Shown one piece after another: positions 2,400 to 2,486 of a stretch of DNA of 5,346 nt (position 1 is its first letter; every line of letters begins with the position of its first letter). The translations under genes and the position numbers were made by a program. Source of the DNA: Escherichia phage ECO95 1-6-1; the sequence record OR845275.1; one strand, 5' to 3'. The notes under the pieces are model-generated. The model saw only the letters and a list, made by a program, of their open reading frames with translations, searched no databases and was not told where the DNA came from.

Positions 2400-2486
2400 T
2401 ATGTTTTCCGAAAGGTTTTTATATTAACACTCCTACTCAACATCACCTATGATACGATCATAAAGCTGATACCCAAAACCATACAC
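2400..2486 (-). promoter_or_regulatory. AT-rich leader/promoter region of the R-M operon containing the palindrome TATGAT-acg-ATCATA (2448-2462)
   Basis: Intergenic stretch between the cer-like core and the R start codon. The perfect 6-bp-arm inverted repeat is seen directly. Promoter hexamers could not be assigned confidently by eye. Confidence 0.35.

Follow-up and report, generated by a model that had tools for sequence, protein, structure and literature searches.

The perfect palindrome in the leader of the R gene probably consists of -10-like hexamers in a symmetric arrangement within the R promoter core, among them the -10 box of the upstream promoter Res_P2, rather than being a separate regulatory site. 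It lies in DNA whose counterpart in pECO29, the original Eco29kI plasmid, has been studied experimentally, and we used the published coordinates to place the promoters on the sequence described here. All positions refer to the window, i.e. the whole 5346-nt stretch of DNA that was analysed.

In the region tested, the window is 100% identical to plasmid pC of Salmonella enterica serovar Enteritidis (NC_003457.1, 5269 bp). Window positions 1-77 are repeated at 5270-5346, showing that the window is a circular 5269-bp plasmid read 77 nt past its own start. The plasmid is of the mobilizable ColE1 type, with RNAI, Rop and MbeA/B/C/D-type mobilization genes, and the restriction-modification (R-M) system of pC has already been published (Gregorova et al. 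2002, as cited in PMC5864857). R lies upstream of M in tandem, and the two genes overlap (R 2399-1755, M 1755-607):

1755-2399, minus strand: R gene, Eco29kI-family GIY-YIG restriction endonuclease of 214 amino acids (Pfam RE_Eco29kI, 233 bits)
607-1755, minus strand: M gene, C5-cytosine methyltransferase of 382 amino acids with the catalytic domain starting from residue 1 (Pfam DNA_methylase, 201 bits)

The R-M module shows ~98% nucleotide identity to that of pECO29 over most of the 2141-nt stretch compared (560-2700). CCGCGG, the Eco29kI recognition site, does not occur in the whole window (1.1 expected), so the plasmid has no target for its own enzyme. The first-pass annotation had described an operon without a C-protein gene; indeed, no HTH ORF was found in or adjoining the cassette, and neither small ORF across the palindrome (2458-2616 and 2367-2600) matched a Pfam family.

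The palindrome and the Dam site that it contains are located as follows:

2448-2462, unstranded: perfect palindrome, TATGAT-ACG-ATCATA on the plus strand and TATGAT-CGT-ATCATA on the R-sense minus strand
2456-2459, unstranded: GATC (Dam site) within the palindrome, 2-5 nt upstream of the hexamer TATCAT (2454-2449)

The plus strand at 2448-2462 reads TATGATACGATCATA, with two perfect 6-nt arms separated by a 3-nt spacer. The first-pass annotation had placed this element about 50 bp upstream of the R start, and its proximal end is in fact 49 nt upstream of the R ATG (the ORF starts at 2399, minus strand). It is the sole perfect inverted repeat with 6-nt arms (loop 0-10) within 2300-2700, and the window contains no second copy of it when two mismatches are allowed. 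Statistically, the palindrome is unremarkable: at least one perfect 6-nt-arm repeat (loop 0-10) was found in 17% of the leaders simulated with a first-order Markov model (87 nt, 34% GC), and in the whole window 22 such repeats were observed versus 14.0 ± 4.4 expected. Folded as a hairpin, it has little stability (-6.3 and -3.3 kcal/mol, z = -1.6 and -1.4 versus shuffled controls). We rejected a regulatory RNA or DNA hairpin, as the structure is weak and is outside the R transcripts, whose reconstructed starts are both downstream of it.

In pECO29, two sigma-70 promoters were identified upstream of eco29kIR using primer extension, KMnO4 probing, in vitro transcription and -10 mutagenesis (Nagornykh et al. 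2011, PMC3113576; statements on this paper refer to its available parts). Of the two R promoters, Res_P2 is located upstream and accounts for ~70% of the transcripts, whereas Res_P1 is located downstream; their initial transcripts are given as GAU and CUU. The same paper describes Met_P, an intragenic M promoter with a start 227 bp upstream of the M ATG, as well as two antisense promoters inside R, whose RNAs prevent the R mRNA from being translated and cause it to decay. The distance between the starts of Res_P1 and of the antisense promoter AS_P1 is given as ~160 bp. In other Eco29kI literature, we found no promoter sequences.

Our placement of Res_P2 and Res_P1 is a reconstruction from the coordinates, initial transcripts and distances in the available parts of PMC3113576, the mapping itself having been done on pECO29. 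All CTT and GAT positions on the R-sense strand of the leader were taken as +1 candidates. The numbers to be matched were those that put Met_P inside +408..+472, the pUTR fragment (+469..+682) inside the 227-nt leader and both antisense promoters inside +178..+252, together with the reading frames of the fusions ending at +168, +282 and +806. On this strand, CTT is present at 2465 and 2414, and GAT at 2459 and 2444 only. The sole candidate in agreement with all of the published numbers was +1 = 2444; a Res_P2 start at 2465, 2459 or 2414 was rejected, each of them failing at least one numeric statement of the paper. With +1 = 2444, the pUTR fragment corresponds to 1976-1763, which is inside the leader 1982-1756, and the antisense fragment corresponds to 2193-2267 and is centred on TATAAT (2221-2226) and TATAGT (2240-2245).

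The sigma-70 position weight matrix (PWM) scan gave a compatible picture. Its top R-sense site in the leader was TTGGGT-16-TATCAT (2454-2449). The only CTT in the leader with a preceding -10 box is that at 2414, and the start predicted from TGtTAATAT (2429-2421) is exactly C2414. From C2414 to ~2252 the distance is 162 bp, versus the ~160 bp stated for Res_P1 and AS_P1. The resulting features are:

2449-2454, minus strand: TATCAT, putative -10 box of Res_P2, made of the last spacer base and five bases of the proximal palindrome arm; best PWM site, 4-5 nt upstream of the reconstructed G2444/A2443
2471-2476, minus strand: TTGGGT, putative -35-like hexamer 16 nt upstream of TATCAT, from the PWM and the alignment (TTGGGG and 17 nt in pECO29)
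2444, minus strand: reconstructed Res_P2 start, G, with GAU as initial transcript, from the fragment coordinates, distances and frames of PMC3113576
2421-2429, minus strand: TGtTAATAT, predicted extended -10 of Res_P1, with the start at C2414 and CUU as initial transcript, from the published transcript and the PWM
1987-1995, minus strand: TGaTATGAT, predicted extended -10 of the intragenic Met_P, with the start at ~1982, 227 nt upstream of the M ATG
2221-2245, plus strand: predicted antisense promoters in R, TATAAT at 2221-2226 (AS_P2, start ~2233) and TATAGT at 2240-2245 (AS_P1, start ~2252)

In the reconstructed placement, the distal arm of the palindrome falls in the Res_P2 spacer. The position of G2444 only 4 nt downstream of TATCAT (5 nt for A2443) means that the discriminator of this promoter is short. 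We also observed that Met_P and Res_P1 both have an extended -10 element and no recognizable -35 element, the type reported for the EcoRI promoter PR.

According to the legend to Figure 7 of PMC3113576, the CpU primer belongs to Res_P2 and the GpA primer to Res_P1, which is the reverse of our reconstruction with the upstream GAU and the downstream CUU. The overlap of a palindrome arm with the -10 box thus depends on coordinates that select G2444 and TATCAT, while this legend conflicts with them. The sequence and the published distances fit only an upstream GAU and a downstream CUU. The frame with +1 = C2414 does fit the Met_P position, the fusion frames and the inclusion of the beginning of R in -72..+34, as given in the Figure 2 legend of the same paper; in this frame, there is no GAT downstream of the start, and one predicted antisense promoter is excluded. 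A GAU-initiating promoter must exist, and in both frames only 2444 and 2459 are available as its start; the first is 4 nt downstream of the palindrome and the second is inside it.

According to this reconstruction, TATCAT (2454-2449) on the R-sense strand would function as the -10 box of Res_P2, giving ~70% of the R transcripts from G2444, and Res_P1 (TGtTAATAT, start C2414) would follow 30 nt downstream. Both promoters would be constitutive as far as the R-M proteins are concerned. The amount of nuclease would be limited after transcription by the antisense RNAs from the two promoters inside R, and M would also be made from its own promoter inside R. For the near-identical pECO29, the two promoters, their insensitivity to the Eco29kI products and the control by antisense RNAs and Met_P are experimental; for the present plasmid, we infer the exact positions of the -10 boxes and starts, as well as that pC acts like pECO29. 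The first-pass annotation proposed that the palindrome could matter for delaying nuclease expression; for this system, the delay and limitation are already explained by Met_P and the two antisense promoters.

Comparison with related plasmids gave little information about the palindrome as such. The stretch 2467-2418, which spans the palindrome and both -10 boxes, is identical in 8/8 aligned plasmids, pECO29 included. Seventeen PLSDB plasmids (17) carry the leader, as do 11 of the 5426 complete genomes of E. coli, in every case on a plasmid; these 17 plasmids and 11 genomes contain only four sequence classes of it, with five variable positions (2485, 2478, 2475, 2468 and 2417). No natural variant breaking the palindrome was present in this set of four near-identical classes, and by a hand calculation the chance that five SNPs all miss a 15-nt palindrome is ~39%; the invariance of 2467-2418 is thus weak evidence of constraint. 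Apart from the shared palindrome, pC and pECO29 have the same Met_P and antisense promoter sequences. They differ in the backbone (3.9 kb in pECO29 versus 5.3 kb in the mobilizable pC), in two parts of the adjacent cer site, the XerC arm and the accessory sequences, in three SNPs in the Res_P2 -35 region and in one at 2417. The pC and pECO29 lineages read TTTTGGGTATCAG and GTTGGGGTATTAG, respectively, in the Res_P2 -35/spacer region (2468, 2475 and 2478). Between them, the spacing of the TTG motif changes from 16 to 17 nt, and the strength of Res_P2 may differ.

The leader is bordered by a sequence that we take to be a cer-type Xer site:

2487-2515, minus strand: presumed cer-type Xer core GGTGCGCGTAA-TGCGACG-TTATGGTAAAT, read from 2515 to 2487 as XerC arm, central region and XerD arm after the dif/cer consensus; the cassette is bounded upstream by its XerD end (2487)

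In ColE1 plasmids that have no R-M system, similarity to the window stops exactly at 2487. The R leader, from the XerD arm to the ATG, thus comprises only 87 nt of DNA specific to the cassette. Accessory-like sequence extends from the cer core up to ~2700. In 8 R-M plasmids, one leader is joined to three variants of the XerC arm and central region; this suggests that the cassette may have been shuffled among ColE1 backbones by Xer recombination at cer.

The first-pass annotation had considered the palindrome as an operator, for instance for autoregulation by the methyltransferase. A dimer of the methyltransferase, as in systems of the SsoII/Ecl18kI/EcoRII type, or of the nuclease would then bind the palindrome and repress R transcription; the sole arguments for this are its dyad symmetry and its position over the promoter. 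In pECO29, the -72..+34 promoter-galK fusion was unchanged by the complete Eco29kI system (p29) in trans, as scored by MacConkey colony colour, a coarse and qualitative assay (PMC3113576), and the whole palindrome is inside this fragment in either coordinate frame. The authors state that the upstream DNA contains neither recognition sites nor operator-like palindromes. The present sequence points in the same direction, with no CCGCGG and no second copy of the palindrome. SsoII, Ecl18kI, EcoRII and MspI resemble this cassette in having a C5-methyltransferase and a palindrome near the promoter, but their methyltransferases possess an N-terminal HTH and act on divergent M and R promoters. In contrast, the M protein studied here aligns to C5-methyltransferase profiles from residues 1-5 and has no N-terminal HTH extension or other additional DNA-binding domain, its gene is in tandem with R, and the trans test in pECO29 was negative. 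An operator for the methyltransferase or the nuclease is thus largely refuted already and is extremely improbable. A methylation-sensing promoter was rejected, as the plasmid has no CCGCGG. We also rejected a hidden C protein, as there is no HTH ORF and the small overlapping ORFs belong to no family.

An operator through which a host transcription factor would modulate R expression, also raised by the first-pass annotation, is quite unlikely. It would be in line with the dyad symmetry and with the lack of variation in 2467-2418 across the known plasmids, but this invariance rests on the four near-identical classes with the chance of missing 15 nt calculated above, the symmetry is expected by chance at the simulated frequency of 17%, and the palindrome is absent from the 25 distant loci described below. 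None of the consensus sites of 20 E. coli regulators fitted the region (0/20). The best was a Pho-box-like direct repeat, CGATCATAAAGCTGATAC, at 2455-2472 on the plus strand, which matches the consensus at 13/18 positions; its uncorrected p value of 0.007 is no longer significant once the 20 comparisons are allowed for, no -10 box is at the right distance from it, and the match is probably due to chance. The palindrome might also be a pure coincidence, i.e. an AT-rich chance repeat without a role, with both R promoters outside it. The simulated 17% agrees with such an origin, and so does the partial fit of the frame +1 = C2414 to the numbers of PMC3113576. We nevertheless regard it as unlikely, since GAT occurs in the leader only at 2444 and 2459 and either the -10 box or the start of the GAU promoter is consequently in or beside the palindrome. 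Of the three readings in the first-pass annotation, part of the promoter has therefore stood and operator has not, judging by the mapped promoter DNA and the negative trans test: the palindrome and its surroundings have the same sequence as the mapped eco29kIR promoter region, and the Res_P2 -10 box, as reconstructed, falls on the proximal arm.

The palindrome also provides the -10 hexamer of a promoter-like site on the opposite strand:

2448-2453, plus strand: TATGAT, -10 of a candidate divergent site with TTAACA (2424-2429) as -35, an 18-nt spacer and a nominal start at ~2460 (10/12 consensus match, PWM)

TTAACA-18-TATGAT is oriented towards cer, opposite to R, and its two hexamers share bases with the -10 boxes of Res_P2 and Res_P1. 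An active divergent promoter on the plus strand could thus compete with Res_P2 and Res_P1 for RNA polymerase, which would add a two-way promoter core to the main explanation. Its 10/12 match to the sigma-70 consensus has the top plus-strand PWM score in 2150-2560, above any R-sense site of the leader (for sites of this quality, the expectation is ~0.09 per leader and strand), the site is wholly within the invariant stretch 2467-2418, and reverse promoters near the R 5' end exist in the analogous EcoRI system. Against this stand the available parts of PMC3113576, which give no sign of such a promoter for a fragment studied in the R direction in vitro and in vivo, and the outcome of the scan, which yields no more promoter sites than shuffled sequences. 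Furthermore, the RNA would not overlap R mRNAs starting at 2444 and 2414, and no gene, terminator or known RNA is located downstream. On balance, we consider the active divergent promoter possible but doubtful. An extended version, in which the palindrome is a shared two-way -10 core, polymerase coming from the opposite direction occludes Res_P2 and Res_P1, and Dam methylation of GATC biases the choice between the directions, is highly unlikely, and any function of the Dam site at 2456-2459 is speculative.

The preferred reading, a palindrome composed of promoter hexamers, can be set beside the arrangement in other R-M systems. In EcoRI of pMB1-type plasmids, R likewise precedes M without a C gene, the R promoter is beside or within the cer Xer site of a ColE1-type plasmid (documented for EcoRI), this promoter has an extended -10 element, and control is exerted by an intragenic M promoter and antisense promoters. 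The enzymes themselves are unrelated. In addition, the -35 element of the EcoRI PR is in the cer central region, whereas the promoters here begin ~10 nt beyond the XerD arm, and the reverse promoter at the R 5' end has been mapped in EcoRI (PREV0), whereas here it is a candidate only.

Distant members of the Eco29kI family appear to be organized differently. We compared 25 loci with 43-67% protein identity, and the palindrome was found in none of them (0/25); a perfect 6-nt-arm repeat was present at -150..0 in 5/25, none at a comparable place. In L014-L019, L022, L023 and L026, an HTH ORF abuts the R start (e.g. 2232-2465 in L015 and 2219-2464 in L022; Pfam HTH_3, E = 1e-17). These distant R genes are thus preceded by an XRE-type HTH ORF of 77-81 amino acids with conserved inverted repeats upstream, as in C-protein/C-box systems, and are probably under C-protein control. 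The repeats are of the ATGCTAA...TTAGCAT or TAGTCTGTAGA type, unlike TATGAT-N3-ATCATA, and the enteric cassette differs further in having no C gene. The palindrome as a relic C-box was rejected, because it is unrelated to the repeats upstream of these C genes.

To summarize, the element is part of an already characterized promoter region, and the regulation of the cassette has already been worked out by experiments in pECO29. The outcome for the dyad is negative, and it is best not treated as a candidate operator in future scans. The points of possible interest are the opposite-strand site, which might compete with the R promoters, and the Dam site, which might affect nuclease expression after plasmid entry. 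If the two-way core with its Dam-dependent choice were true, nuclease expression just after entry or replication, when the plasmid DNA is un- or hemimethylated, would differ from that of resident DNA with full methylation.
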